64,000 nt of DNA from Armatimonadota bacterium (GCA_963663705.1 OY760504.1:2711217-2775216), one strand, 5' to 3'. Positions 9,635-64,000 are shown, numbered from the stretch's first letter. A program made the numbers and translations. The notes: a model not told the origin generated them from the letters alone.

Positions 9635-10194
9635 CTGGTAGAGGATCTGTTCAGCGGTGTACTTTTCTGCAACGTCCCCTGCCCATGTGGCGAATTGGCA
9701 TTGAAGGCGATAAGGGTGGCAAGCCTGTAGCTGTGTTAATGAGCAAGAAGAGGAATACTATTTTACGAATTGCTGCTCGATGAACTGGCTCTTTTGTCTG
9801 TAGCAATGGCGGCTCTTCAAGAAGCCGAGGAGACTCTATCCTGAGTCCCTGGGCCTTTTTTCGTGCCTCTCCGGATACACCGCCGTTTTCGGGTGTACTC
9901 AAACCGTATTTGACCTTTGCACCTGATATGAACACGCCAAATCACGTGACCGGACTTTGTCGGCAAAGGCACATCCTCCACACCTTTTCGATTTTGGAGG
10001 GTTCGCAAAATCGGCTATGCTTCCTCGGCCCTTTTAAGGATTGGGCATATTCCGTGGATGTAATGCGGTAATTACTTTTATCTTATAGCAATCATTTGAT
10101 TCATTGTACGTGCTAGCCAAGTGTCCGTAGAGAGTCCACTTTCCTAAACGACTCGAAACCTTTGGATAGGTTCCGAGTCGTTGCCTTGTGTGAA

Positions 10195-11154
10195 TTATAG
10201 ACCGTACATGAAGTCGAGTATCTTGTCGTCTACGCCGGGGAGACATTCGTGCCCGAAGTCGGGGTAGATCAGCATGTTTTTCTTCGATGTGATTTTGTTG
10301 TAGGCTGCGAATTGCGTGGATGGAGGGCAAATATCGTCTATCAATCCGGTTGTCATCAGCACTTCGGCTTTGATTCGGCTTGCCAGATGTTGATTGTCGA
10401 TATAACCTAGCTTTGTAAATATCTCATCTTTGTGTTCATGTAGGGGATCGGTCATCCTGAAGTACGTGCGCAGTTCCTCGTAAGCGTTTTTGTCCAGATC
10501 CATCTCCCATACACGCAAGTAATCGCAGAGAAACGGCATGAAAGGCGCTGCAAGTTTGATCCTGGGCTCGAGAGCAGCACAGGCGAGCGTGAGTCCGCCT
10601 CCCTGCGAACCGCCTGTCGCTCCTACTCTCGCAGGATCGACTTCCGGCATGCCCATCAGTATCCGAGCTAGTTCGGCGCAGTCCAGAAATACAGAGCGGA
10701 AGAAGAGCTTCTTAGGATCGCCGCTCAATCCACGGATTATGTGGCCTTTATAAGTGTTTCCTGTCACGCCGCCTATGTCTTCCGATAGACCGGCCTGACC
10801 CCGGCAGTCAAGCGCCGCTACGGAAAATCCCTGGCCTACCCAGCTCAGGTAGTTGATCCATTCTCCGCTGTCTCTCGTGTAGCCGTGAAAGAACAGTACT
10901 CCGGGATGAGGCTTGTCTGCTCCCTTGGGGCGGAGATACTTGGCGTGGATGCGCGCCCCGCCGACGCCGGTGAAGTAGAGATGATAGCCCTCTGCAAACG
11001 GATGCTTGTATTCGCTCGGCACCAACTCAACCTTGGGGTCTATGTTTTGCATTTCGGTAAGGCTGTCATCCCAGAACTTGTCGAAATCGGCCGGACGCGG
11101 ATTACGACCTTGATATTCCATCAATTCTTCGAGTGGCATGTCGATAATCGGCAT
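10195..11154 (-). CDS. axe: CE7 acetyl xylan esterase / cephalosporin-C deacetylase family
   Basis: N-terminus MPLEELMEYQGRNPRPADFDKFWDD and the nucleophile elbow GGSQGGGL are hallmarks of CE7 (AXE1) enzymes; 319 aa. Confidence 0.8.
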   Translation of the reverse strand: MPIIDMPLEELMEYQGRNPRPADFDKFWDDSLTEMQNIDPKVELVPSEYKHPFAEGYHLYFTGVGGARIHAKYLRPKGADKPHPGVLFFHGYTRDSGEWINYLSWVGQGFSVAALDCRGQAGLSEDIGGVTGNTYKGHIIRGLSGDPKKLFFRSVFLDCAELARILMGMPEVDPARVGATGGSQGGGLTLACAALEPRIKLAAPFMPFLCDYLRVWEMDLDKNAYEELRTYFRMTDPLHEHKDEIFTKLGYIDNQHLASRIKAEVLMTTGLIDDICPPSTQFAAYNKITSKKNMLIYPDFGHECLPGVDDKILDFMYGL

Positions 11155-11329
11155 TGGATAAGTTCCTCCATCATAATACCTATTGAATAGTAGTAAATAT
11201 TCTTAAACCATTATCGCTCGGTAGCCCGAATTCCTGCCAAATATAGAGCTTTTCTGAAAAATTAGTTACATGTCTATTCGGGGCCTTCTTCGGCGATGAA
11301 TATGGCTACATCAGTCAAAATGCAAGCGA

Positions 11330-11905
11330 AATTCTAGACGCTGTACTGTCCCTCGACGGTGATATTCAGCGGGATTTCTTTCAGCACTTGCAGGCCGGCT
11401 TTGTTGTATAAACTGCGGAAATCGGTAATAGCTGTAAGGGGGATGCTTGGGCTGTTGTACCATTCGCATGGTTACGATGACCATGGCGAACGTGGTCGAT
11501 AAAGGACAGTTGGTATTGGATCCGCGCTAAGTTCAGGATGCTGATTATGCATCCATTCCCACGCTCGACATTTCTTGAATTAGGGATAGCGGGCGGTGCA
11601 GCACTTGGATTGCGTTAGTGAGGTTTACATATGGATGTGTTGGTGCAGTCGGCGAGCCCTTAGTCCGTGAACTCCATTCTCCTCAAAGAACGGGATTACC
11701 CTATGCTCCTTACTCCCCCAGGTGAGATAAAGATGCCCTGTTTCTTCAACTCATTCGATACCCTAATCTGACCGCAGGCCGGTTTCTCAATAGCAAATAC
11801 AAGTACAGCCTCTTCGATGTAACCCTCTACTCGGTTCTTAAGAATCGGCTTCTTTCGGCTGATCTCAAGGAGCGCCATCTCACCGCCGGGCAACGTTTCC
11901 ATGTG
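11330..11905 (-). pseudogene. Degenerate DDE transposase remnant (IS481-like family), with multiple stops and frameshifts
   Basis: The N-terminal HTH segment is intact (MALLEISRKKP...IRVSNELKKQGIFISPGGVRSIG). Downstream frames carry recognisable but broken transposase segments (IQYQLSFIDHV ; LTAITDFRSLYNKAGLQVLKEI). Confidence 0.45.
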
Positions 11906-11959
11906 TTTTTGCCAATTCTATTAACCCGATTTTATTCCGTATTATCTTCTGTTCTGTTG

Positions 11960-12240
11960 TCATCTGACAAAACTTCAGCCTGATCAGGATTGACCGCAAA
12001 TATCCGACGGTCTTAGCAAGATATTACCCTTTACCGTTTGTATTATCCCCATTATAATTGTACATGTTAAGTGTTGATACCTAATCTATGTAGAAATGTT
12101 CACTGAAGAAGCCGCCCGACCGGAAGACATGGATTTCATCTCGATCGTTACCCCGAACTACATGCACTACCCGGTGGCGATCTCATCTCTCGATGCAGGG
12201 CTTTCCGTAGGGTGAGACAAACCGATGACGCTGACACTTT
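11960..12240 (+). pseudogene. Relic duplicate of the 19.5-20.9 kb locus: AraC 3' end, intergenic promoter region, and an internal fragment of a Gfo/Idh/MocA oxidoreductase
   Basis: 11976-12070 matches 19531-19620. Both encode ...PDQD-stop followed by ttagcaagatattaccctttacc. 12130-12216 encodes MDFISIVTPNYMHYPVAISSLDAGLSVG[12 protein letters not shown], matching [37 protein letters not shown] of the 20503..21654 gene. No start codon; there is an internal stop. Confidence 0.55.
12014..12058 (+). promoter_or_regulatory. Operator-like motif TAGCAAGATATTAC followed by a TTTACC-N17-TATAAT promoter (relic copy)
   Basis: Motif at 12014-12027, -35 at 12030-12035, -10 at 12053-12058. Confidence 0.4.
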
Positions 12241-12469
12241 GCGAGGCCAAGGGTGTTCGCAGAATGCAGATTGTCGACAGAAAAAGATATCTTGCCCGTC
12301 GAGCTTATCGTTCGAAAGTGCACAGGTTAGATTGGCTGATATATCGAAGAAAAGGTAATAGTTATGCCACAGATTTGTGGATGGTGTGTGGAGGAGGGAT
12401 GAAAATATGGCATAAGTAAAGTGTCCTGTTTCAAAGGTATTCCACATTTTATAATGAAAGGGCGGTTTT

Positions 12470-13174
12470 ATGATGAAAGAAAAAAGAGGTTTCACCCTGA
12501 TTGAATTGCTAGTTGTCATAGCTATAATAGCTATATTGGCAGCAATCCTGTTTCCTGTATTCGCAAAGGCAAGGGAGAAGGCACGGCAGGCATCATGCCA
12601 GAGCAATGTTAAGCAGTTGACTTTGGGCATGCTAATGTATACTCAGGATTATGATGAGACACTCCCTCCCTGGATTGTAGGAATGAGCGGTACATTTCCA
12701 AATGGTGACCCGGCAAGTAGTGGAGACCCGGCGGGCTATCAGATATGGCTGACATGTATCTATCCTTATGTTAAGAACAACAAAGTCTTTGTGTGCCCCA
12801 GCGCTGGCGGATTGGACTATACAGGAGGACAGTACTGGGGGGGAACGTTTGGGGCTAATAATCCGAAGATCGCTTCGTATGGTGCGAATTCGTGGATACT
12901 GTCGAGCATATACACCGGCGGTGTTACGATGTCAGATATAAAAATGCCGTCGGATACTCCTTTTATAGCCGATTGTGATTACTATATGGTTGGACCATAC
13001 ACGGGCGGCGATGCTTATAACACTAGGGTGCCTGCGGCACGGCACAATGATATGGTAAACATTGGGTTCGCGGATGGCCATGTAAAGACGTGTAAACAGG
13101 ATGCTTGGGTCACTTCGGGCGGTAAATCGTGGCGCGACCCTGTATGGGTGAAATGGTCGCCGGATCTTCAATAA
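12470..13174 (+). CDS. DUF1559 / H-X9-DG protein with a prepilin-type N-terminal cleavage-methylation domain
   Basis: N-terminus [40 protein letters not shown]; C-terminal GFADGHVKTC motif. Confidence 0.85.
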   Translation: MMKEKRGFTLIELLVVIAIIAILAAILFPVFAKAREKARQASCQSNVKQLTLGMLMYTQDYDETLPPWIVGMSGTFPNGDPASSGDPAGYQIWLTCIYPYVKNNKVFVCPSAGGLDYTGGQYWGGTFGANNPKIASYGANSWILSSIYTGGVTMSDIKMPSDTPFIADCDYYMVGPYTGGDAYNTRVPAARHNDMVNIGFADGHVKTCKQDAWVTSGGKSWRDPVWVKWSPDLQ

Positions 13175-13496
13175 TATTGTTCTGACACTAGATAAAGTGG
13201 TGATAGGTAAGCCTCCGGCAGATACGGGGGCTTACCTTCAAAGTAGTCCATCATACCAAACATGAACCTATCAACGTAAAGTGAAATCTGTTACAACCTC
13301 AATAGGCTAGTGGATGTTATTATGCAGGTCAGGGATAAGCGGGAAGACTTCTTCGGGCTGTTACTTGCAGACATGGATACCGGTAAAGGATCATCCCTCA
13401 TGTGATATGAAAACGAAAATGTAACAGACTGCACGAGCAGTCTATGGTAGTTGAGTAAAATACATACTTAAAGATACCCGATAGGAGCAATGATCA

Positions 13497-15539
13497 ATGG
13501 ATCTTAGATGCGAAAAATTGAGCCTTAGTGTAAACGGTCAAGGAATTGTGGAATCCGTACGACTTATCGATAAAGACTACGAGTTTATAACCGGTGCAGC
13601 AGGTTACTCGGCGGTCGAAGATTGCCTGCAGAATTCTATCAGCGGAGACCCTGATGGCGAGACTCCGCAGGCAGCGACCCGCGTAGAGAACGGCTCGATT
13701 TACGTCACGAGGTCATTTGCGAGCGGGCTTGTGATAGAAGATACCTTCTCATCCGATTCCGGTGCGGTCCGGTGGAGAGTGCATGTCTCTACTTCGGAAA
13801 AGACTCCTAGAACTGCGAATCTCTTTCTCGTTCTGCCGGTACTCGGGCAGGACCGGCACGTCTTCGTTACGCACAACGACGCACCGCTCTCGCCGGGGAA
13901 TTTCCGCCATGTGCGCTATGTGTACGGAGGCGATCAGTTCCGAGGCGAGCTGCACAGGGCTGTGGCTCTCCCAGTCGTTACGTTTTACAAGCGCGAGGCG
14001 GACGCCGGACTGACTTGTGCAGTACCCGCGGGCTTGCCTGTGCCTGCCATATGGTATTCGATGTTCCACGAGTCGGATAAGGTAGGCTTCGTGAGTAAAT
14101 TTGTGAACATGCGGCTCTCGGCCAAGCATCCGATCGAAGTTGAGATGCTCATACACGGGCATGGCGGCAACTGGCAGGACGGCTTGTCCTGGTATAGCGA
14201 CCGGTATCACGATTACTTCACGGTCAAGAACGAGGATGTCTACAGGACTGAGGGCGCTATGATCTGTTCGCACGTCCTGCACAGCGAAGATGAAATCAGG
14301 AGATGGAAGGCACAGGGCTTCGCATGGCAGGAACTTCATGCCAACATGCTCTCCTACTACGGAGAATACATGCCGGAGGGCGAGCGATGGGAGACGATCA
14401 ACTCCAAATACCTTGCCAAGAACTTGGACCTGCGGAAGCTCGCCGCTCTCGATCCCGTGGGCGTAGAGTACAACACGCTGACCCAGTGTGCGCCGGATCC
14501 GTATATGAGCAAGAACCGCCTGCGCGAGTACATCGATACTCTGCACAAGAACGGTGTGGCTGCTTTCATCTACTTTAACCCCGTACTCTGCGACAAACAG
14601 ATAGTGGGGAGGTTCGAGTCCGACATAGCTAGAAACGAAGACGGCACACCCTGTGCTAATGGATACTACTTTGGCGTAAGTATGAACCCGGACCCCAATG
14701 GAGGCTGGGGGCGTCATCTGATACAACAGGTCGAGCGCATGATGAGTGAGTTCCCGAACTGTGACGGCATATTCTACGATGAGGTGCATTACCGCCATTA
14801 CGATTTCGCCCACGACGACGGCATCACGATGGTTCACAACAAGCCATGCTCCATGATAGGCTTCGCGATGGCTGATCTGGCAGAGCGTATCTGCGGAATC
14901 GTGCATGCCGCCGGAAAAGTCGTTTGGGCAAACGGCCCGACAAGCCTGGAGGTTGTTAGATACCTGGACGGATGTATGGCCGAGCATAGCAGCACATGGA
15001 TGGGCACGGTGCAGTATTTCTGTCTGGAGAAGCCGATGGTGCTGCTCGCCGGCGGAGACCCTGTCGATAAGCTCTGGGACGGATTCAAAAAGTCATTGGT
15101 CTGCGGTGGGCAGCCGGACGTACTCTGGAAGCTCGATGAGCAGGCAATTTCCGGCGATAACAAGGAGAATCTCTCTCCGAAACCGGCCGACGATCCTGCT
15201 CGACAGGCGCTATGCACGGCGTTCAGACCTCTGCTCGATATGATCAAGGGGCGCAAGTGGGTGCTCCAGCCGAACGTGCTCGAACTACCTGAAGGCGTAG
15301 TCGGCAACTTTTTCGAACTCAGGGACGGCTCTATCGCCATACCTCTGGCTGTGGATCAGCCGCAGAGCAATGTAACGGTGAAGGTGAAGAATACACTTCT
15401 TCCCGAGTATGCAAAGGCTGAGGTAATTACAACGGAGGGCGCTATTGCATCAACTTTGCGTATCGGATCAGGGGATATGTATGCCTCGATAGACATACCT
15501 CTTCTCCAACATGCAGCAGTAATCCGTCTTAACAGCTGA
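13497..15539 (+). CDS. Conserved hypothetical cytoplasmic protein (680 aa), with a paralog at 62001
   Basis: Long ORF with a coding pattern and no signal peptide. It is highly similar to the 62001.. ORF. Conserved segments HGHGGNWQDG, YFNPVLCDK, VWANGPTS. No family assignable by eye. Confidence 0.6.
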   Translation: MDLRCEKLSLSVNGQGIVESVRLIDKDYEFITGAAGYSAVEDCLQNSISGDPDGETPQAATRVENGSIYVTRSFASGLVIEDTFSSDSGAVRWRVHVSTSEKTPRTANLFLVLPVLGQDRHVFVTHNDAPLSPGNFRHVRYVYGGDQFRGELHRAVALPVVTFYKREADAGLTCAVPAGLPVPAIWYSMFHESDKVGFVSKFVNMRLSAKHPIEVEMLIHGHGGNWQDGLSWYSDRYHDYFTVKNEDVYRTEGAMICSHVLHSEDEIRRWKAQGFAWQELHANMLSYYGEYMPEGERWETINSKYLAKNLDLRKLAALDPVGVEYNTLTQCAPDPYMSKNRLREYIDTLHKNGVAAFIYFNPVLCDKQIVGRFESDIARNEDGTPCANGYYFGVSMNPDPNGGWGRHLIQQVERMMSEFPNCDGIFYDEVHYRHYDFAHDDGITMVHNKPCSMIGFAMADLAERICGIVHAAGKVVWANGPTSLEVVRYLDGCMAEHSSTWMGTVQYFCLEKPMVLLAGGDPVDKLWDGFKKSLVCGGQPDVLWKLDEQAISGDNKENLSPKPADDPARQALCTAFRPLLDMIKGRKWVLQPNVLELPEGVVGNFFELRDGSIAIPLAVDQPQSNVTVKVKNTLLPEYAKAEVITTEGAIASTLRIGSGDMYASIDIPLLQHAAVIRLNS

Positions 15540-15818
15540 CTGTATGTCACTGATTCTGAATAGGGCCTCGATAAATAGACGCCATAAGGTAGGATGAAGA
15601 CAAAGCGCCGTGCAGAGGGCCTCGAGACTTTTGTCACGATAGATACCTGAGTGCTACATCATACAAAGTAAGTATGCTCAGGCTCTGATATGGCAAATGA
15701 ATGGATATAATTCGCCATAAGAATAGAAAACAACCATTTGCTAAGGTGAGGGCAAGACAAAAGAACTGCTTGCTAATTATGGAAGATATACAGCCTAAGT
15801 GCAATATATCGCCGGTTA

Positions 15819-15862
15819 TAGCAAGATATTACTCTTGAATCCCCACTGTGGAATGCTATACT
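15819..15862 (+). promoter_or_regulatory. Operator-like motif TAGCAAGATATTAC plus a TTGAAT-N16-TATACT promoter upstream of the aminotransferase operon
   Basis: Same 14-nt motif as at 12014 and 19565, abutting a putative -35. Confidence 0.4.
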
Positions 15863-15914
15863 TATTATGCAACAGCGAATCTGTATTTGCAACAAGATCA
15901 GGGGGATTACTAAA

Positions 15915-17189
15915 TTGGGTGATAAACTTGCACTTTTAGGTGGAAAACCGGCTGTAGACAAAGATGTAGAATTCAAAATATGGCCGGAAGTTACCAAAGA
16001 AGACGAAGAGTATGTGCTGGCATCTCTTCATCAGAACAATCATGCCTGGGGGCCCAACTGCATTGCGCTCCAGGATGAGTTTGCCGCATGGAATGGCAAC
16101 AAATTCTGCGCTGCCACAAACAGTGGCACGGCGGCGCTTCATATGGCGATAGCTGCATTTGGCATAGGCCCGGGCGATGAGGTGATTACCACCACACTCT
16201 CATGGACCTCCACTGCCACGTGTGTGATGCATCACAATGCCATCCCTATCTTTGTAGAAGTGGATTGGGATTCTATGCTGATAGATCCCAAAAAGATTGA
16301 AGCAGCCATCACCCCGAGGACCAAGGCCATTCTGCCAGTGCACTACTGGGGTGTGCCGTGCGACATGGACGCAATAATGGCAATTGCAAAGAAGCATGGG
16401 CTATATGTTTTGGAAGACGCGTGCCAGGGCCACGGTGCTACCTACAAGGGTCGGAAGACCGGTACTTTTGGGGAGTGTTCCGCCTTCAGTCTCAACCAGA
16501 ACAAAAACTTCTCCGCGGGTGAGGGCGGTCTATTTGTCACAGAGGATGAAAAACTGTTTGAGGCGGCACGTGCGCTGATGAGCTTTGGCGAGATGCGCGC
16601 TCCTGAATCGAATCGGGACTTCCACTCCTACGGCATGGGCTGGATGTATAGAACCGATGATATTTCAGCGGCATACGCCAGGAGTGCCCTTGCCAAACTG
16701 GATAAGACAAACGCGCAGGCCCGGGCAAATTTCGACCGTCTGCAAAACAGCCTGCAGGGCCTTAAGGGGATCGTACTGCCGTTTGACACCGAAGATCAGA
16801 AGAGTAACGGATATGCATATGTGATAAGGGTAGAACCGGAATCCGCAGGCTGGAACGGTAAAGCTTCGGAATTTCGCGATATCGTGATAAACGCACTTGC
16901 GGCCGAAGGCGTCCCGGTGGCGTCTGCCAGGTGGATGCTTCCCGCACATACGGTGTTTCAGGCGAAGAACGGTTACGGCAAAGGCTGCCCATGGGAGTGC
17001 CAGTACGCCCGGCAGGATATCGACTATTCTCTGGATCAGTATCCCATAACAAACCGCGTGGTGGACACCTGCATTCAGATAGCCATCAACGGGCATCGCC
17101 CCCCGAACGGCGGCGAACAGTTAGATGCGATAGCATCAGGTATCCGCAAAGTATTCGAGAACCTGGATCAGCTTCCGAGCGAAGCATAA
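15915..17189 (+). CDS. DegT/DnrJ/EryC1/StrS family PLP-dependent aminotransferase
   Basis: Family-typical blocks GDEVITTTLSW, AILPVHYWGVPCDMDAIMAIAKKHGLYVLEDACQGHG, SAFSLNQNKNFSAGEGG. TTG at 15915 has a GGGGG RBS and is preferred. The in-frame ATG at 15867 would sit at the predicted transcription start. Confidence 0.75.
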   Translation: MGDKLALLGGKPAVDKDVEFKIWPEVTKEDEEYVLASLHQNNHAWGPNCIALQDEFAAWNGNKFCAATNSGTAALHMAIAAFGIGPGDEVITTTLSWTSTATCVMHHNAIPIFVEVDWDSMLIDPKKIEAAITPRTKAILPVHYWGVPCDMDAIMAIAKKHGLYVLEDACQGHGATYKGRKTGTFGECSAFSLNQNKNFSAGEGGLFVTEDEKLFEAARALMSFGEMRAPESNRDFHSYGMGWMYRTDDISAAYARSALAKLDKTNAQARANFDRLQNSLQGLKGIVLPFDTEDQKSNGYAYVIRVEPESAGWNGKASEFRDIVINALAAEGVPVASARWMLPAHTVFQAKNGYGKGCPWECQYARQDIDYSLDQYPITNRVVDTCIQIAINGHRPPNGGEQLDAIASGIRKVFENLDQLPSEA

Positions 17190-17260
17190 AATATGCAGGC
17201 GGCGGAAGATACTCCTCGAAATCTTTCGCCGCTTACGTGAAAATAATGGGAGAGCACATC

Positions 17261-18556
17261 ATGAAAGTTGGAACCGCATGGGCGGATATCACCCCATCCG
17301 TCCCCATAGACATCGTAGGGCAAATGGTTGTGAGAAAAGGGAAGTACACCCACGACCCGATAACAGTGAATGCCGTAGTCTTTGAGAAAGATGACACAAA
17401 GGTGGCGCTGGTCTCCTGTGATCTCTGTTATATGGGGATTAATGTCATTGATGATGTTCAGACTTTGTGTGAAAAGGAACTAGGGATACCGGCGGCTTCG
17501 GTTATCATCGCCTGCACTCACACGCATCTGGCCCCTGCCACACGCGATACGTTGTATGGAGACGTAAACGAAAATTTTATAAAAACGTACAAAGAATCTG
17601 TGGTAGATATAGTCCGCAGAGCCCTGAAAAATGCAGAAGATGTCGATATCTACGCCGGAGCAGGATGGATCGATCAGATGGGATTCAACCGCCGGGGGAT
17701 TACCAAAGCCGGTCACGCGGAGATGTATTACGGCAGCTGGGAGGCAGACTTCGACAGGGTGGAAGGCCCGCGAGATGGTCAGGTCGGCGTTCTGTTTGCC
17801 CGCAGACCGGATGGTAGCATAAAAGCAGTGGTTACCTCATTCTCTACCCATCCGAATTCTATGGAAGGCGAAAGCTTCTACAGCGCAGATCTGGTAGGCG
17901 CTACAAGAAATTTCTTGCGGCAGAATCTCGGCGAAGATGTGGGCGTAGTCTATCTCACCGGCGCCGCAGGGGATACCGCTCCGAGCAAACTTGATGATAA
18001 CAAGAACGGTGAGATGCCGTGGCGTGGAGAGGAAGGATGGAAACGTTCGGGACTATATCTCGGCAGCGAGATACTAAAAACCATCGCAGGGACGATAAAA
18101 CCGATGCCTGATCCCCTCTTGCGTCTGGAGCAGGAGTCGGTACCCATAGCGATCCGTCCCTGGCCTAATTTGACCTGGATGTCGAACGACACCCTCAGCG
18201 ATGCCTTCCAGGACTTCTATAGTCTGGAGAAAGAACGCTGGCCCGAAGTCATACGCAAGGAAAGCCCAATGAAGGTTCGCATCAACGTTCTGCGCATAGG
18301 GGACGCGAGCATCTGTACAAACCCAGGAGAATTGTTCGTGGACTACGGGCTGCAGATCAAAAAGTCGTCCCCATCAAACATTACGCTCATCTCCGAGCTT
18401 ACGGACGGCAATGTCGGTTATGTTCCTACAGAAGAAGCTTTCCGGCACGGGGGATATGAAACAATGCCTGCAGAAAGCAGCTTACTTGACGAGCCCGCGG
18501 GAGGGATCATCGTACAAACCACCCTGAATCTACTGAACAAAGCCTTTACGGCATAA
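17261..18556 (+). CDS. Neutral/alkaline ceramidase-like N-terminal domain family hydrolase (putative)
   Basis: MKVGTAWADITPSVPIDIVGQMVVRKGKYTHDPITVNAVVFEKDDTKVALVSCDLCYM fits the G-A-x-DITPP...HDPL-A-A...LVSLDL pattern of bacterial ceramidase-like proteins. RBS GGAGAG 6 nt upstream. The listed ORF's 16931 start overlaps the previous gene. Confidence 0.45.
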   Translation: MKVGTAWADITPSVPIDIVGQMVVRKGKYTHDPITVNAVVFEKDDTKVALVSCDLCYMGINVIDDVQTLCEKELGIPAASVIIACTHTHLAPATRDTLYGDVNENFIKTYKESVVDIVRRALKNAEDVDIYAGAGWIDQMGFNRRGITKAGHAEMYYGSWEADFDRVEGPRDGQVGVLFARRPDGSIKAVVTSFSTHPNSMEGESFYSADLVGATRNFLRQNLGEDVGVVYLTGAAGDTAPSKLDDNKNGEMPWRGEEGWKRSGLYLGSEILKTIAGTIKPMPDPLLRLEQESVPIAIRPWPNLTWMSNDTLSDAFQDFYSLEKERWPEVIRKESPMKVRINVLRIGDASICTNPGELFVDYGLQIKKSSPSNITLISELTDGNVGYVPTEEAFRHGGYETMPAESSLLDEPAGGIIVQTTLNLLNKAFTA

Positions 18557-18683
18557 CACTTTCAAGAAGGAGATTTGCAGTCGAAGCTGGAAATTGGTTT
18601 TAGCAATAGAAAGTGCTAATCGACAGGAATCATCGCCGGCATCAACGGCGCTGACTGAGGTGCTTCCTCTTCGAGGAATGTAG

Positions 18684-19544
18684 ATGGCAGTAGATAAATT
18701 GGAATTCTTAACCGAAATGGGAGAATACCTCCCGGAAATCACATGCATCGGACGTTCTATCTTCGATCCTGTATATGCAGAGGAAGAACACGTTGATAAA
18801 TCGTCCGAGCTCATTCACTTTCTGCATGGGCGCGGGGAGGTTCGGACCCGTGATTTCACTATATACGGCAAAGAGGGTGATAGTATCTACCTGCCTGCCG
18901 ATGTGCCGCATCGCGACATATTTGAAAAAGGCTATGCATTTGAAGCGTACCTGGTCCAATTCCGCTGGGCAGGCGAAGAGAGTTTGCTCAAGGCGTTTCA
19001 TCCGTCGCAGCTGGCCGATATCTCGGAGCCGGGTAAGCTGCGGATCGCCGCGGAATTTCAAAGCCTCTTTAGCGATTTTTCCGATCATATGCCTTTTGGG
19101 GCAGAGATGACTAGCCTGAACATTCTGCGCATCATAGCCATCATGTGCAGAGAGGCTGGAAATATTGCAGGGATGGAAGATCTTCACTCAAGCGATGTGG
19201 GCAAACCGCGGCGCGTGCAGTTGATGATGCAGGCCAAGCGCATTATCATGGATAAGTTCAACGAACCCATAAACCTTGCTCTCATCGCATCGCAATTGAA
19301 TATCAGTTCATATTACCTCTCGAGAGTCTTCAGCGAAGAGAGCGGGTTCCGGCTGTCGAGCTATCTGACCCAGATTCGCATGGAAAAGGCTGTCGCGATG
19401 CTCGACGATTCCCGCCTCAACCTCGCTGAAGTCGGGCGGGCCGTTGGTTTTAGCGATAGCCACTACTTCGGGCAGGTCTTCAAGGCTTATTTTGGAATAT
19501 CCCCCAAAGTTTACAGGGCAAAACTTTTGCCTGATCAGGATTGA
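18684..19544 (+). CDS. AraC family transcriptional regulator
   Basis: C-terminal double HTH (SYYLSRVFSEESGFRLSSYLTQIRMEKAVAMLDDSRLNLAEVGRAVGFSDSHYFGQVFKAYFGISP) with an N-terminal sensing domain. Confidence 0.8.
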   Translation: MAVDKLEFLTEMGEYLPEITCIGRSIFDPVYAEEEHVDKSSELIHFLHGRGEVRTRDFTIYGKEGDSIYLPADVPHRDIFEKGYAFEAYLVQFRWAGEESLLKAFHPSQLADISEPGKLRIAAEFQSLFSDFSDHMPFGAEMTSLNILRIIAIMCREAGNIAGMEDLHSSDVGKPRRVQLMMQAKRIIMDKFNEPINLALIASQLNISSYYLSRVFSEESGFRLSSYLTQIRMEKAVAMLDDSRLNLAEVGRAVGFSDSHYFGQVFKAYFGISPKVYRAKLLPDQD

Positions 19545-19564
19545 CCGCAAATAACCAACCTTCT

Positions 19565-19609
19565 TAGCAAGATATTACCCTTTACCATATGTACCATCAA
19601 CACTATAAT
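19565..19609 (+). promoter_or_regulatory. Operator-like motif TAGCAAGATATTAC plus a TTTACC-N17-TATAAT promoter for the isomerase/oxidoreductase/xylA operon
   Basis: Motif at 19565-19578, -35 at 19581-19586, -10 at 19604-19609. The region starts inside the last codons of the AraC gene. Confidence 0.45.
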
Positions 19610-19666
19610 TATTGCATACCAAGCATTTTTTTGAGGCCTGCTTGCCAGGCGACTCTGGAGGAAACG

Positions 19667-20506
19667 ATGCGATATGCGATGATGTCTTACACAATGGCTA
19701 TTGGAGACTGGGGTAAAGATTGCGACGTTGCCGAACTGTGTCACATAACCTCAACGATGGGCATTGAAGGAATTGATTGGGTTACGACTTACGGTGTCTC
19801 CCCGCGAGAAGTGAAGATCCTCATGGATGATCATGGCCTGAAAACGGTCTGCTACACCTTCGATGTTGATGTGAACTTTCCCGAGAGGAGTGCACGACAG
19901 GCTGGTGTGGATGATATCAAACGTGGAATAGACACGGCGCTGATTCTGGGTACGGACAGGGTGATGCTGCCTTTTCCCGGCAAAGATGCGTTCTCCCGCG
20001 AGGAAAGCCGTGCGAATATCATTGCAGGGCTCAGCGATGCGATGGATTATGCCAAATCGTGCGGTGTAATGATAAGCACGGAGCACTTCTCAACGCCTAA
20101 TGCCCCATTCATAGTCTCGGCGGATATGAACGCCGCCATCCGCGAACTCCCCGACCTCAAGGTGACATTTGACAGTGGAAATGTCCTCATCGGTGGAGAG
20201 AACCCTGTTGATGGATTCCTCCGCAGCAAAGAGTCCATTGTGCATGTTCATTTCAAAGATTTCGCAGAGAACGGATGTCGCTTTACCGGGCTTGATGGGA
20301 GATTGTATGACGCTGCGCTGATAGGGGAAGGCATTGTCGATTACCCGCCGCTTGTTGCAGCCATGATAGACGCCGGATATGACGGCTGGATCAATATAGA
20401 GTACGAAAGCGGTGAATATCCCGCAGACAAGGCTGTGCGTAAAGCCATAGATTACCTGAAATCCATAGAAGACCGGCTCATGGAACCAGCTGGGAGCAAG
20501 CTATGA
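19667..20506 (+). CDS. Sugar phosphate isomerase/epimerase (xylose-isomerase-like TIM barrel)
   Basis: TIM-barrel family pattern. RBS GGAGGA before the ATG at 19667. The longer ORF start at 19589 lies upstream of the predicted -10. Confidence 0.65.
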   Translation: MRYAMMSYTMAIGDWGKDCDVAELCHITSTMGIEGIDWVTTYGVSPREVKILMDDHGLKTVCYTFDVDVNFPERSARQAGVDDIKRGIDTALILGTDRVMLPFPGKDAFSREESRANIIAGLSDAMDYAKSCGVMISTEHFSTPNAPFIVSADMNAAIRELPDLKVTFDSGNVLIGGENPVDGFLRSKESIVHVHFKDFAENGCRFTGLDGRLYDAALIGEGIVDYPPLVAAMIDAGYDGWINIEYESGEYPADKAVRKAIDYLKSIEDRLMEPAGSKL

Positions 20507-21654
20507 ATCGAAAGATCAGAATGGGTATGGTAGGCGGCGGAGTAGGTGCATTCATCGGTGGTGCACACCGCATGGCTGCGCAATTGGATGGACAGATAGA
20601 ACTGGTCTGCGGCGCGTTCAGCTCCGATCGCGATAAGTCGATGGCGAGCGGGCGTGCTTTGTATCTGCCTGATGACAGAATTTACGGTAGCTATCAGGAT
20701 ATGTTTGCGAAGGAATCAGCCCTGCCATCGAGTAAGCGGATGGATTTCGTCTCGATAGTCACTCCGAACCACATGCATTATCCGGTGGCAATGGCAGCCC
20801 TCGATGCAGGGTTTCCTGTGGTATGCGACAAGCCGATGACGCTGACTCTTGATGAGGCCAAAGCCCTCGCGAAAAAGGTTGAAGAGACAGGGCTCCTGTT
20901 CTGCCTCACCCATAATTATACGGGTTATCCTATGGTTAAAGAAGCTCGTGATCTGGTTAACGGCGGCGCATTAGGTGCAGTACGGCGCGTGGTGGTCGAG
21001 TACCCGCAGGGCTGGATGGCGACTTCCCTTGAATCGACTGGTCAGAAACAGGCAGATTGGAGAACCGACCCTGCACGTGCAGGCGCAAGCTTCACTATGG
21101 GCGATATAGGCAGCCACTGCGCAAATCTTGCCGAGTACATCACCGGTCTTGAGATTGAGCAGGTTTGCGCTGATCTCACATCGTTCGTGCCCGGCCGTGC
21201 GCTCGACGACGACGGCAGCGTGCTCCTTCGCCTGAGCGGTGGTGCAAAAGGCGTACTCTGGGCGAGCGATATTGCCGTTGGTGAAGAGAACGACCTGAAC
21301 ATCCGCGTCTACGCAGAAAAAGGCGCGATCGAGTGGCACCAGCATGATCCCAACACCCTCATCGTTCACTGGCTAGACAAGCCAAGTGAGATTCGGCGAA
21401 CATCCACCGGCTTCGTAGGCGCAAACGCAGCCTCGAACACGCGCCTTCCTGCCGGACATGTGGAAGGCTTCCTGGAAGCGTTCGGAAACATCTACAAAAA
21501 CTTCGCCGACACACTGACCAAGCGGCTTGAAGGCGATACATCCGCAACCGGCGACTTCCCCACTGTAGATGATGGCGTCCGTGGGATGGCCTTTATTCAA
21601 TCAGTGGTAGAGAGTTCGGCATCTAATCAAAAATGGATAAATATCAAAGCTTAA
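20503..21654 (+). CDS. Gfo/Idh/MocA family oxidoreductase
   Basis: [17 protein letters not shown] Rossmann N-terminus; CDKP motif; ATGA overlap with the upstream gene. Confidence 0.8.
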
Positions 21655-21665
21655 GGGGAATTGAA

Positions 21666-22661
21666 ATGAGCGCAAGATTAGTTACACTATTCACCGGACA
21701 ATTTGCAGATATACCGCTCGAGGAACTTGCAAAAAAGGCCTCTGGTTGGGGATTCGACGGGCTGGAACTGGCCTGCTGGGGTGATCACCTTGATGTCTTC
21801 CGAGCGGCAAGCGATAAGGACTATGCACAGGGACAGGTTGACCTCCTCGCTAAGCATGGGCTGAAGGTCAGGTCCATAAGCAACCATCTGGCAGGGCAGC
21901 TTATATGCGATTTGAACAACGACGCTCGATCAGACGCGTTTGCCCCCGCAGAGTACGCAGGCGATCCTGATGCAAAGCGTGCATGGGCTATCGAAAGCAT
22001 GAAATGCGCCGCCCGCGCAGCAAAGAATATGGGCGTCAAAGTGGTAAACGGCTTCACTGGATCATCCATCTGGCACCTCATCTACAGTTTTCCGCCAGTA
22101 AGCGAGGAGATGATACAGTCAGGTTTCGCCGACTTTGCAGCCAAGTGGAACCCGATTCTAGATGTATTCGATGAGTGTGGGGTCAAGTTTGCGCTTGAGG
22201 TACATCCTACAGAGATAGCGTTTGATATAGTTACCGCCAGGCGTGCACTGGCAGCAGTAGGGAACAGGGAAGCGTTCGGCTTCAACTTCGACCCAAGCCA
22301 TCTGCACTGGCAGATGGTCGATCCTGTAAAGTTCATACAGGCGTTTTCCGATCGTATATATCATGTGCATATGAAGGACGCAGCGCTTACTTTGGATGGA
22401 GAGGCCGGGATACTGGCGTCATACATGAACTTCGGCACGCCAGGCAGAGGCTGGGATTTCAGGAGCGTCGGGCGCGGTGAGGTCGACTTCGAATCGATCA
22501 TACGGGCGCTGAACGTCATAGGGTACGATGGTCCGCTGTCTGTTGAGTGGGAAGATGCTATGATGGACAGGGAGTTCGGCGCTGCCGAATCATGCCGTTT
22601 TACCAAGGACATCGACTTCCCGAAGTCTGACCGGGTATTTGACGAAGCCTTCGGTAAATAG
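21666..22661 (+). CDS. Sugar phosphate isomerase/epimerase (xylose-isomerase-like TIM barrel)
   Basis: RBS AAGGGG, then ATG at 21666. Family-typical His/Glu/Asp distribution (HVHMKD ; EWED). Confidence 0.65.
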
Positions 22662-22686
22662 GTTATCTAGCGCAGGAGAAGTTTAT

Positions 22687-23439
22687 ATGAAACCAATAGC
22701 AGTTCAATTGTATACCCTTCGTGCCGAAGCAGAGAAGGATTTCCCCGGCGTGCTTCGCAGGGTAGCGGATATCGGTTACAACGGCGTCGAAACAGCCGGA
22801 TTGCATGGCCATGATCCCAAAGAAATCGCCAAACTAATCAGCGATTTAGGGATGGTGGTGTGCAGTAGTCATACCGACCTTCCGAATCCAGACAACATAG
22901 GCGATATCGTGGAGACGGCACAGACCCTTGGTAACACAAGAATCGTAAGCGGTTTCGGCCCTGACGACTTTACGACACCGGATTCATGCAAGGAGATCGC
23001 AGCCAGATTCAGCCTTGCCGCCGAACTCCTCAAACCGTACGGCATGAGCTTTGGCTTCCATAATCACTGGTGGGAGTTCAGGTCCTTCGAAGGCAAATAC
23101 GCATACGACATCCTTATGGCCGAAGCCCCGAATGTGTTCAGCGAACTTGATGTATACTGGACGGCTTTCGCAAAAGCGGACCCGGTGAAGGTCGTCGCTA
23201 AGTATAAGTCCAGAATACCGCTTCTGCACCTTAAGGATGGCACGCTTCAGGAAGGTGTCCCCATGACGGCGGTCGGATCGGGAGTGGTTCCTATTCCCGA
23301 GATCGTAAATGCAGCCGATCCTGAATCACTCGAATGGTTGATAGTAGAGCTTGATGAATGTGCAAGCGACATGTTTGAAGCCGTTGAACAGAGCTACAAA
23401 TATCTTACTTCACAGAGGCTTGCATCAGGCATCAAATAG
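22687..23439 (+). CDS. Sugar phosphate isomerase/epimerase (xylose-isomerase-like TIM barrel)
   Basis: MKPIAVQLYTLRAE N-terminus typical of this family; RBS AGGAGAAG. Confidence 0.65.
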   Translation: MKPIAVQLYTLRAEAEKDFPGVLRRVADIGYNGVETAGLHGHDPKEIAKLISDLGMVVCSSHTDLPNPDNIGDIVETAQTLGNTRIVSGFGPDDFTTPDSCKEIAARFSLAAELLKPYGMSFGFHNHWWEFRSFEGKYAYDILMAEAPNVFSELDVYWTAFAKADPVKVVAKYKSRIPLLHLKDGTLQEGVPMTAVGSGVVPIPEIVNAADPESLEWLIVELDECASDMFEAVEQSYKYLTSQRLASGIK

Positions 23440-61810: not shown

Positions 61811-62000
61811 CATTATTCAAGGTTGGTGGAACTAGAGAAGTCATGGCAGACAATATTATAACAAGTGTGAGGGATGTTACCTGGGGGTTGCCATCGAGAA
61901 TTTGGAATAAAAGAATCTAAGGAGAATACTAAACTGTTGTCGGTTTCCAAATATGTCAGATTAACGCTATGCATGCTTAATTCGTGGGGAGGAATTATCT

Positions 62001-64000
62001 ATGGAACTTAAAAGTGAAAACCTAAGCATTTCTGTAAGTGAGTTGGGAATTGTGGAGTCTATCCGGCTCATTGATAGAGAATATGAATTTATCTCGGGAG
62101 CTCCGGGTTATTCGGCGGTTGAAGATTGCATGAAGGAACGTATCATCGGGGGGCCAGACTGCGAAACTCCGCAGGTGGAGACTCGAGTGGAAAATAGCGC
62201 GATTTTCATTTCGAGGCTCTTCCCGAGCAGCGGACTGACTATAGAAGATATCTTTTCATGTGATTCAGGAGCCATAAGGTGGAAAGTACGTGTATCTACT
62301 TGCGATGAAGTTCCTCGAACTGCACATGTCTATATGGTTCTGCCTGTATTGGGACAGGACCGCCATGTCTTCGTTGCTCACAATGATGCTCCACTGGCGC
62401 CACAGAATTTTCGCCATCTGCGGTATGTATACGGCGGAGATATGTTCAGAGGCGAACTGCATAGGGCTGTCGCATTACCTGTCGTTACGTTTTATCAGCC
62501 CCAAGCAGATGCGGGTTTGACGTGCGCCGTACCTGCGGGATCGTCTGTGCCGATCATATGGTATTCTATGTTCCACGAGTCAGATAAGGTCGGTTTTGTG
62601 AGCAAGTTTACCAATATGCGGCTCTCTGCCAATTGTCAGATCGAGATTGATATGCTCATACATGGGCATGGTGGAAACTGGCAGGATGGTTTGGCATGGT
62701 ACAGCGAAAGATATCACGACTACTTCACGGTCAAGAACGAGGATGTCTACAAATCAGAGGGAGCTATGCTCTGCTCTCATGTTTTGCACACCGAGGACGA
62801 GATCAAGAGATGGAATCGGCAGGGATTTGCATGGCAGGAATTGCATGCTAACATGCTCTCTTTCTATGGTGAATATATGCCGGAGGAAGATTCTTGGGAG
62901 ACAATCAACTCCCGATACCTGGCTAGAAACCTTGACCTCGGAAAATTGGCTCTCCTTGATCCTCTCGGCGGAGAGTATGACGCGTTAGTTCAGGATGCGC
63001 CCGATCCGTATCTGAGCAAAGACAGGCTGCGCGACTATATCGATCTTCTGCACAAAAACGGCGTGGCTGCTTTCATCTACTTTAACCCCGTTCTCTGCGA
63101 TAAACATATCGTCGGACAATTTGAGTCCGATATCGCCAGAAACTAAGATGGTACTCCTTGCGGTGATGGATACTACTTTGGCGTAAGCATGAACCCTGAT
63201 CCGAACGGATGCTGGGGTCGGTACTTGATCGCACAGGTAGAGCGTATGATGCTCGAGTTCCCGAACTGCGATGGCATATTCTACGATGAGGCACATTACC
63301 GCCACTACGATTTCGCCCATGATGATGGCATCACCATGGTTCATAACAAATCATGCTGTATGCTAGGCTTTCCCATGGTTGAAATGGCCGAGCGTATCTG
63401 CGGAATCGTCCATGCTGCAGGAAAGGTTGTATGGGCTAACGGCCCGACGAGTATTGAGATAGCCAAATATTTGGATGGATTCATGGCCGAGCACAGCAGT
63501 GTATGGATGGGTACAGTTCAGTATTTTGGCTTGGAGAAACCGATGGTGCTGCTTGCCGGTGGAGATTCTATCGATGAACTCTGGAACGGATTCAAAAAAG
63601 CGCTGATATGTGGAGGACAGCCGGACGTACTGTGGCAACTTGATGAGAGCGCCATTCCTGGCGATTCTAAGGAAAGCTTTGCACCTAAACCGGCCGATGA
63701 TCCTGATCGCCAGGCGCTTTGCATGGCTTTCAGGCCTCTACTGGATCTGATTAAAGGACGCAAATGGATACTCCTGCCAAGCCTACTCGAATTACCGGAA
63801 GGCGTAATCGGCAATTGTTTCAAACTTAGGGATGGCTCTATTGCGATACCGTTGGCGGTGGACCGGCCGCTGAGCAATATAACGATAAGGCTCAAGAATA
63901 CGCTTCTGTCTGATCATGCGAAAGCTGAGATTATTACAACGGAGGATGCATTTGCATCGAATGTATCGATTATATCTGGTGATAGATATGCATCGATCGA
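62001..64000 (+). pseudogene. Paralog of 13497..15539 interrupted by an in-frame TAA at 63144-63146; 3' end lies beyond the window
   Basis: DIARN-TAA-DGTPCGDGYYFGVSMN here against DIARNEDGTPCANGYYFGVSMN in the paralog. Homology continues in the same frame to the window end. Confidence 0.55.

Follow-up and report, generated by a model that had tools for sequence, protein, structure and literature searches.

In an Armatimonadota bacterium, the interval that separates the genes for an acetyl-xylan esterase and a DUF1559 protein contains adjoining pieces of a transposase, a regulatory gene and an oxidoreductase gene. The interval raises the questions of where these pieces came from, how they were brought together and whether any of them is still in use. 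It was analysed within a stretch of 64,000 nucleotides (GCA_963663705.1 OY760504.1:2711217-2775216), referred to here as the window, and all positions are counted from its first nucleotide. The preferred reading, with a probability of about 0.8, is that the interval is a scar composed of the remnants of four genes joined by deletions, and that these include a decayed, old in-lineage paralogue of a sugar-catabolic operon with AraC, TIM-barrel and Gfo/Idh/MocA oxidoreductase (GFO) genes. Since the paralogous locus lies 7.5 kb away, the window by itself suffices to reconstruct the loss.

Organization of the scar

The four remnants are arranged, from left to right, as the last two-thirds of a MetW-like methyltransferase gene and three pieces from the 5' third of an IS481-family transposase gene (both on the minus strand), the tail of an AraC-family gene with its operator and promoter, and codons of a GFO gene (both on the plus strand). 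The last two are referred to as the relic. The coordinates of the scar and of the features compared with it are given in Table 1. The scar was found at 100% identity in four independent metagenome assemblies (three from Logan and one from ENA) and is therefore not an assembly artefact. Its GC content is 44-46%, compared with approximately 52% in the flanking genes. No RNA family was found by an Rfam search of 10800-12800, and when 11155-11700 and 12240-12470 were compared with the remainder of the window by tblastx, the matches did not exceed chance level. Each boundary in the scar is a deletion joint. The minimum number of events comprises two nonsense mutations, several small indels and at least six larger deletions, and approximately 1 kb is left of approximately 4.8 kb of genes.

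Table 1. Positions of the scar, its components and the related features of the window
Feature	Position	Strand	Description
Acetyl-xylan esterase gene	10195-11154	-	AXE1 match, E 7e-125; adjoins the scar
Composite non-coding scar	11262-12263		~1 kb; remnants of four unrelated genes, end to end
MetW-like SAM-methyltransferase pseudogene	11262-11631	-	Residues ~99-220 only
Probable transposase residues ~215-229	11658-11702	-	RVIPFFEENGVHGLR; E 0.01 (tblastn, 561 nt searched); marginal
Transposase residues 48-109, HTH region	11702-11887	-	Other frame than residues 1-26; 68-aa ORF at 11696-11902
Transposase residues 1-26	11886-11963	-	ATG 11963-11961; MTTEQKIIRNKIGLIELAKTHGNVAR vs MTQEQKVIRAKVGMLELAKQLGNVSQ, 62%
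AraC-family regulator paralogue tail	11966-11993	+	Last 8-9 codons, aligned to 19517-19544
Candidate AraC-type operator	11996-12027	+	Two direct half-sites, 20 nt apart
Relic sigma-70-type promoter	12030-12058	+	TTTACC, 17 nt spacer, TATAAT; 10/12 consensus
Joint	12060-12085		26 unassignable nt in place of ~1.08 kb; homology of neither flank crosses
GFO fragment	12078-12263	+	Residues 61-124 of 383; tblastn 59% over 64 residues, E 9e-18
Third operator copy and promoter	15801-15862	+	TTGAAT, 16 nt spacer, TATACT
Intact AraC-family gene	18684-19544	+	286 aa, PF12833 E 1e-19
Intact operator	19547-19578	+	Upstream of the TIM-barrel/GFO operon
Intact promoter	19581-19609	+	Promoter scan
Xylose-isomerase-like TIM-barrel gene	ORF 19589-20506	+	Pfam/NCBIfam scans
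Intact GFO gene	20503-21654	+	Pfam/NCBIfam scans
Three further TIM-barrel genes	up to 24597	+	Continuation of the intact partner locus (18684-21654)

Homology with the intact locus

The initial annotation held that the scar repeats the 3' end of the AraC gene with the promoter behind it, followed by an internal Gfo/Idh/MocA piece with an internal stop. Both elements were recovered by pairwise alignment, which gave significant nucleotide identity in two collinear blocks when 11200-12480 was used as a blastn query against the whole window and a repeat search covered 10-23 kb. The first direct repeat pairs 11968-12059 with 19519-19610 (92 nt, 86% identity, E 3e-25; repeat search and blastn) and contains the last AraC codons and the intergenic promoter of the operon, so that the homology includes non-coding sequence. 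The second pairs 12129-12250 with 20740-20861 (122 nt, 80% identity, E 7e-27; repeat search and blastn) and contains an internal GFO piece, residues 80-121. To call this piece nearly identical to the intact gene was an overstatement, given 80% nucleotide identity and 76% amino acid identity in the 42-residue core.

The AraC tail reads ..KLQPDQD and ends at a TGA stop codon (11991-11993). In the GFO fragment, an in-frame TGA (12213-12215) stands where the intact gene has Cys108, a 6-nt gap is present near 12120, and the homology ends abruptly at approximately 12263. The gene caller gives the fragment as a 39-aa ORF (12097-12216). The fragment matches NCBIfam oxidoreductase models and represents part of the Rossmann-fold domain only, with no full open frame containing the C-terminal alpha/beta domain; the intact paralogue carries all three Pfam domains and is only distantly levoglucosan dehydrogenase-like (115 bits against a 650-bit cut-off). 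The two blocks are separated in the intact locus by approximately 1.08 kb that the relic has lost, comprising the 5'UTR, the entire isomerase gene and GFO codons 1-62.

The 10-nt sequence CCTGATCAGG, a perfect palindrome, is present at 11979-11988 and 19530-19539, overlapping the last AraC codons. It belongs to a stretch of 25 nt in which the relic and the intact copy do not differ, although coding constraint no longer acts on the relic there. The palindrome may serve as an additional binding site for a protein or mark a gene-conversion tract.

Transposase and methyltransferase remnants

A degenerate IS481-like transposase had been placed at 11330-11905. A remnant of such a gene is indeed present, but it extends from 11658 or 11702 to 11963 on the minus strand, and the lower part of the interval first assigned to it is the MetW-like pseudogene. 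The piece with residues 48-109 is 65-69% identical to transposases annotated as IS481 family on plasmids of Neochlamydia and Bradyrhizobium, and together with residues 1-26 it gives a joint tblastn E of 4e-25 to annotated IS481 transposases. The 68-aa ORF matches NF033577 at positions 40-101 with an E of 5.6e-6, far under the 224-bit cut-off because only a fragment is left, and 48 database relatives of this ORF bear HTH_29, HTH_28 or HTH_32 domains. For the marginal piece at 11658-11702, the transposase score was 42 (reached by 0.2% of shuffles), against a MetW score of 22 (reached by 7.6%). A reading of 11632-11703 as the upstream continuation of MetW scored below the transposase reading and was rejected; the joint between the IS and the MetW-like sequence lies within 11632-11657.

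Residues 27-47, residues 110-214 and everything after approximately 229 (of approximately 360) are missing from the transposase. Apart from the marginal 15-residue piece, no significant match was found for residues 110-360, and no rve (DDE) domain was detected by Pfam in six-frame translations. The repeat search revealed no inverted repeat flanking the relic within 10000-23000, and the 64-kb window holds no second copy of the IS481-family fragment.

The 3' side of the transposase has been replaced by the MetW-like pseudogene, whose identity was settled by a full-library phmmer search. Searching 11337-11471 (minus strand) against 1.84e9 proteins returned P0175, P0177 and P0179 with E values of 2.5e-4 to 9e-4, all three of which are Pfam MetW members. 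By tblastn of P0179 against the whole window, amino acids 99-123 were aligned with 11631-11557 (60%) and amino acids 155-218 with 11471-11283; the alignment has an E of 3.9e-14 and reads through an in-frame TAG at 11336-11334. A frameshift with the loss of approximately 8 nt lies between 11557 and 11471. Single-frame HMM matches to MetW were obtained with TIGR02081 (E 8.4e-5) and PF07021 (E 1.2e-3), and stitching the frames raised the TIGR02081 score only modestly. No match was found against PDB sequences and the fetched loci. The N-terminal 98 residues, including the SAM-binding half, are absent, and the pseudogene is no evidence for methionine biosynthesis at this locus.

Operator and promoter

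Sites of AraC/XylS activators consist of two direct half-sites approximately two helical turns apart, and the proximal half-site borders on the -35 element or overlaps it (araBAD, rhaBAD and XylS Pm). In the relic, the half-sites are GCAAATAT at 11996 and GCAAGATAT at 12016, and the proximal 14-mer TAGCAAGATATTAC (12014-12027) ends 2 nt before the -35 hexamer. This 14-mer occurs exactly three times in the 64 kb, at 12014, 15819 and 19565, against 0.28 matches expected even with up to two mismatches. The pattern of two half-sites is present at 11996 and 15801 (0.005 expected), and the distal half-site of the intact operon is a degenerate form, GCAAATAAC, with the 20-nt spacing kept. The geometry of operator and -35 is the same at 12014/12030, 15819/15835 and 19565/19581, and the hexamers of the relic promoter are identical to those at 19581-19609. 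The third copy is located upstream of an operon with DegT-type aminotransferase and ceramidase-like genes. The true start of the DegT-type gene is probably TTG 15916, after AGGGGG, and that of the TIM-barrel gene probably ATG 19667, after GGAGG.

At 15801-15862 and 19547-19609 the shared operator and promoter are held in fixed register. The mechanical ORF starts (19589-19667 and 15867-15916) fall inside or just past the predicted promoters.

The operons behind these sites form a candidate regulon of the AraC-family gene at 18684-19544, and the GCAA-N-ATAT repeats with TAGCAAGATATTAC two bases before the -35 hexamer would define it. A metagenome scan for the degenerate operator returned nothing.

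When the relic and the intact copy are compared, 1 of the 35 half-site, -35 and -10 positions differs (within the half-sites), against 10 of the 31 other non-coding positions, including 7 of the 17 in the spacer (Fisher p 0.0015, with the categories chosen post hoc). The non-coding block is also far more similar than the third codon positions (p 2e-4). This footprint is proof of past constraint or of gene conversion, not of present function, and the high identity of the block could be the result of gene conversion rather than of selection. The regulatory module is the sole part of the scar that still looks functional.

The relic promoter faces the GFO fragment, followed by the DUF1559 prepilin-type gene (12470) and the GHL6-like gene (13497). 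Among the alternatives to simple decay is that the promoter and operator are a working AraC-dependent promoter captured for the genes at 12470-15539, or are kept as a site that titrates the regulator. Both conservation contrasts described above (the first of them with its post hoc categories) speak for such a role, as does the distal half-site of the relic, whose match to the DegT copy is closer than that of the distal half-site in the intact operon. No terminator was predicted between 12058 and 12470, the genes from 12.5 to 24.6 kb all lie on the plus strand in one sugar-related block, and an N_methyl gene is found beside a related cluster in another organism. Set against this, the conservation could date wholly from the lifetime of the operon or from gene conversion, and a 400-nt leader of pseudogene sequence would be unusual; capture or titration is considered unlikely. 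The narrower proposal that the relic promoter still drives or regulates the DUF1559 and GHL6-like genes through this leader is likewise considered unlikely. If it were true, these two genes would join the sugar-responsive regulon of the two downstream operons, an instance of rewiring by promoter capture.

Age and origin of the lost copy

The relic and the GFO gene of the window differ with a pS of 0.52 and a pN of 0.117 (Nei-Gojobori, 42 codons). Over the same codons, the pS and pN are 0.105 and 0.010 between the window gene and a copy on ENA contig L035, 0.78 and 0.056 between the window gene and its nearest foreign homologue, P0051, and 0.82 and 0.18 between the relic and P0051, respectively. 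Because the relic has a pS of 0.52 to its own genome's gene and of 0.82 to the foreign one, duplication within the lineage is favoured. The comparison, in which 42-55 codons are comparable and the dating rests on just 42 codons and 92 non-coding bases, favours an old in-lineage paralogue, which would be far older than the duplicate with 95.7% identity described below.

A second alternative is that the lost operon was a horizontally acquired xenologue that decayed later. The protein of the relic is no closer to the GFO copies of this genome (36-37 of 55 residues identical) than to foreign homologues (38 of 55), and an IS lies adjacent. That the protein distances are equal is accounted for by additional substitutions unique to the branch of the relic. 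Moreover, the synonymous sites and the 86% identical, largely non-coding block link the relic to its own genome's copy, and the same operator is found at two other native promoters, which makes foreign acquisition improbable.

Within the 122-nt block, differences between the relic and the intact gene number 7, 2 and 15 at codon positions 1, 2 and 3, respectively (chi-square p 0.004), and the dN/dS of the relic is approximately 0.14. This pattern suggests, on very few sites, that most of the divergence arose while both copies worked. The simple scheme in which the locus was duplicated and then eroded is accordingly not upheld by these differences, and the copy was probably functional for long. 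If the copy had always been a pseudogene, approximately 16 of 26 differences would be expected to be non-synonymous, and 11 of 26 were observed (p approximately 0.03 by a rough, uncomputed binomial estimate); as a test for past selection on the relic this is weak. Of the 11 core positions at which the relic and the intact copy differ, 9 show a residue in the relic that is absent from the family sample, and several of these changes affect sites that are otherwise invariant (V83I, F104L, V107G and C108stop). The elevated pN and these novel residues would be consistent with a final phase in which the sequence was free of constraint.

The searches identified no relative that retains the lost locus intact or has the same neighbourhood, and the ancestral arrangement was not observed. 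In a scan with the acetyl-xylan esterase, using one genome per species, there was no close relative (best 70% amino acid identity) and no conserved neighbourhood. The relic GFO peptide retrieved only the 39-aa ORF itself from a set of 5.8 billion proteins, and a metagenome scan with the back-translated peptide retrieved nothing.

Other copies of the module

The suggested check for additional copies of the locus in the genome proved fruitful: the GFO module is present there at least twice more, in copies of much younger age. Three proteins make up the 90% cluster of the window GFO, and a single contig of 3,780,622 nt encodes all of them: the window protein, P0050 and a 185-aa fragment on ENA contig L035. 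P0050 is a full-length GFO, 97% identical to the window protein (11 substitutions) and distinct from the L035 copy. The region L035:7871-9705 (ENA ERZ21878447 ctg30060l) has 95.7% nucleotide identity to window 20499-22352 over 1854 nt. The homology starts 4 nt before the GFO start codon and covers the GFO gene and the next TIM-barrel gene to the end of the contig. A 19-nt deletion splits this GFO into ORFs of 195 and 185 aa. The upstream context is different and contains amylase, divergent AraC and DegT genes; the only operator match in this paralogous region has 3 mismatches and is not above chance. Copies of the module are being placed in other sugar loci under AraC control, where they again break down. 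The scar, L035 and P0050 together indicate that a GFO/TIM-barrel sugar-oxidation module has been repeatedly duplicated and lost in this organism.

A foreign cluster, L037/L038:627-7149 (GCA_002398225.1, ENA ERZ27283048), shares most genes of window 15.9-21.7 kb, namely a divergent AraC gene and genes encoding the DegT aminotransferase, ceramidase-like protein, TIM barrel, a 206-aa protein and GFO. From this shared gene set, the genes at 15.9-24.6 kb form a functional unit. A small N_methyl prepilin-like gene adjoins the foreign cluster. Its AraC-DegT intergenic region contains GCAA repeats 21 nt apart, as judged by eye only.

Neighbouring genes

The 5' part of the GHL6-like gene (680 aa), at 13497-14243, has a 75% identical paralogous stretch at 61988-62750, which was seen in mapping L001 and is another sign of gene-family expansion. 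Logan contig L003 (ERR12035211) agrees fully with the window as far down as 9026, a position within a GNAT acetyltransferase gene, and the 94 nt beyond this point (L003:3848-3941) have no match in the window; the break is either a structural variant or the product of chimeric assembly. The best relatives of the acetyl-xylan esterase (66-70% amino acid identity) belong to Armatimonadota, Bacillota, Chloroflexia and Phycisphaerae and share no neighbourhood, a scatter compatible with horizontal spread of the gene.

Role of the IS and proposed history

The initial annotation described a segmental duplication that had eroded beside a dead IS481-family transposase, probably through the action of the IS. 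An eroded paralogous copy is supported here, whereas the role given to the IS finds no support. Deletions mediated by an IS in adjacent DNA keep the IS end intact at the joint, and no IS terminus is present at any joint of the scar. Only 2-4 nt separate the transposase ATG (11963-11961) from the point where homology to the AraC tail begins (11966-11968). The reference element of Neochlamydia is present in two inverted copies, whose common sequence extends upstream of the ATG for at least 24, and probably approximately 150, nt; the IS end is therefore missing from the scar. The IS itself suffered from the deletions, and nothing points to it as their cause.

The corresponding alternative, in which the 18.7-21.6 kb locus was duplicated recently as a segment and the copy then eroded via IS481-mediated deletion, draws on the dead transposase directly abutting the AraC tail and on the collinearity of the relic with the intact locus. 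An identity of only 80-86% and a pS of approximately 0.5 speak against its recency, as a truly recent duplicate in this genome has 95.7% identity; against its mechanism speaks the absence of the intact IS end expected at the joint, with no terminus at any of the joints and three internal or terminal deletions in the IS itself. It is regarded as very improbable. That the similarity is due to chance or to convergent protein motifs can be dismissed, being refuted by the nucleotide E values obtained within the window (3e-25 and 7e-27) for two collinear blocks, one of them mostly non-coding.

For the preferred reading of a decayed in-lineage paralogue, the order of events, as we infer it, would be as follows. 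The operon module would have been duplicated in the lineage long ago (synonymous divergence approximately 0.5-0.9), and the second copy may have been functional for most of that time. An IS481-family element would then have been inserted nearby, and at least six deletions and two nonsense mutations would finally have removed approximately 80% of the approximately 4.8 kb.

The scar is a case of ordinary deletion-biased pseudogene decay of dispensable bacterial DNA and holds no surprise for the specialist. Its value lies in annotation, in the history of the GFO family and in the candidate operator motif. For annotation it matters that the 68-aa and 39-aa ORFs called by gene callers in the scar are pseudogene fragments.

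Comparison with known systems

The operators resemble AraC/XylS sites in having direct GCAA-N-ATAT half-sites 20 nt apart and an AraC-family gene in the cluster. At all three promoters the proximal half-site ends 2 nt before the -35 hexamer, as in the AraC/XylS layout, and binding is predicted. Unlike sites of the araBAD type, one of the three fronts a destroyed operon.

The N-terminal HTH region of the transposase is 62-69% identical to those of IS481 elements (Neochlamydia pS13 and Bradyrhizobium pBel61; NF033577), but the remnant lacks the DDE catalytic domain and both terminal inverted repeats and is a fragment. Similarly, the C-terminal 120 residues of the methyltransferase pseudogene align with MetW (PF07021/TIGR02081) at 44-60%, but the pseudogene has a stop and a frameshift, its SAM-binding half is gone and no metX partner is nearby.

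Pseudogene decay with a deletional bias, in which dispensable genes are hit by nonsense mutations and frameshifts and then by many deletions, is described by Kuo & Ochman (PMC2817411, PMC2916853) and Danneels et al. (PMC6054270). The scar resembles such decay in its short collinear fragments and lowered GC content. Nothing essential differs from known decay, and the scar packs the remnants of four genes into 1 kb.
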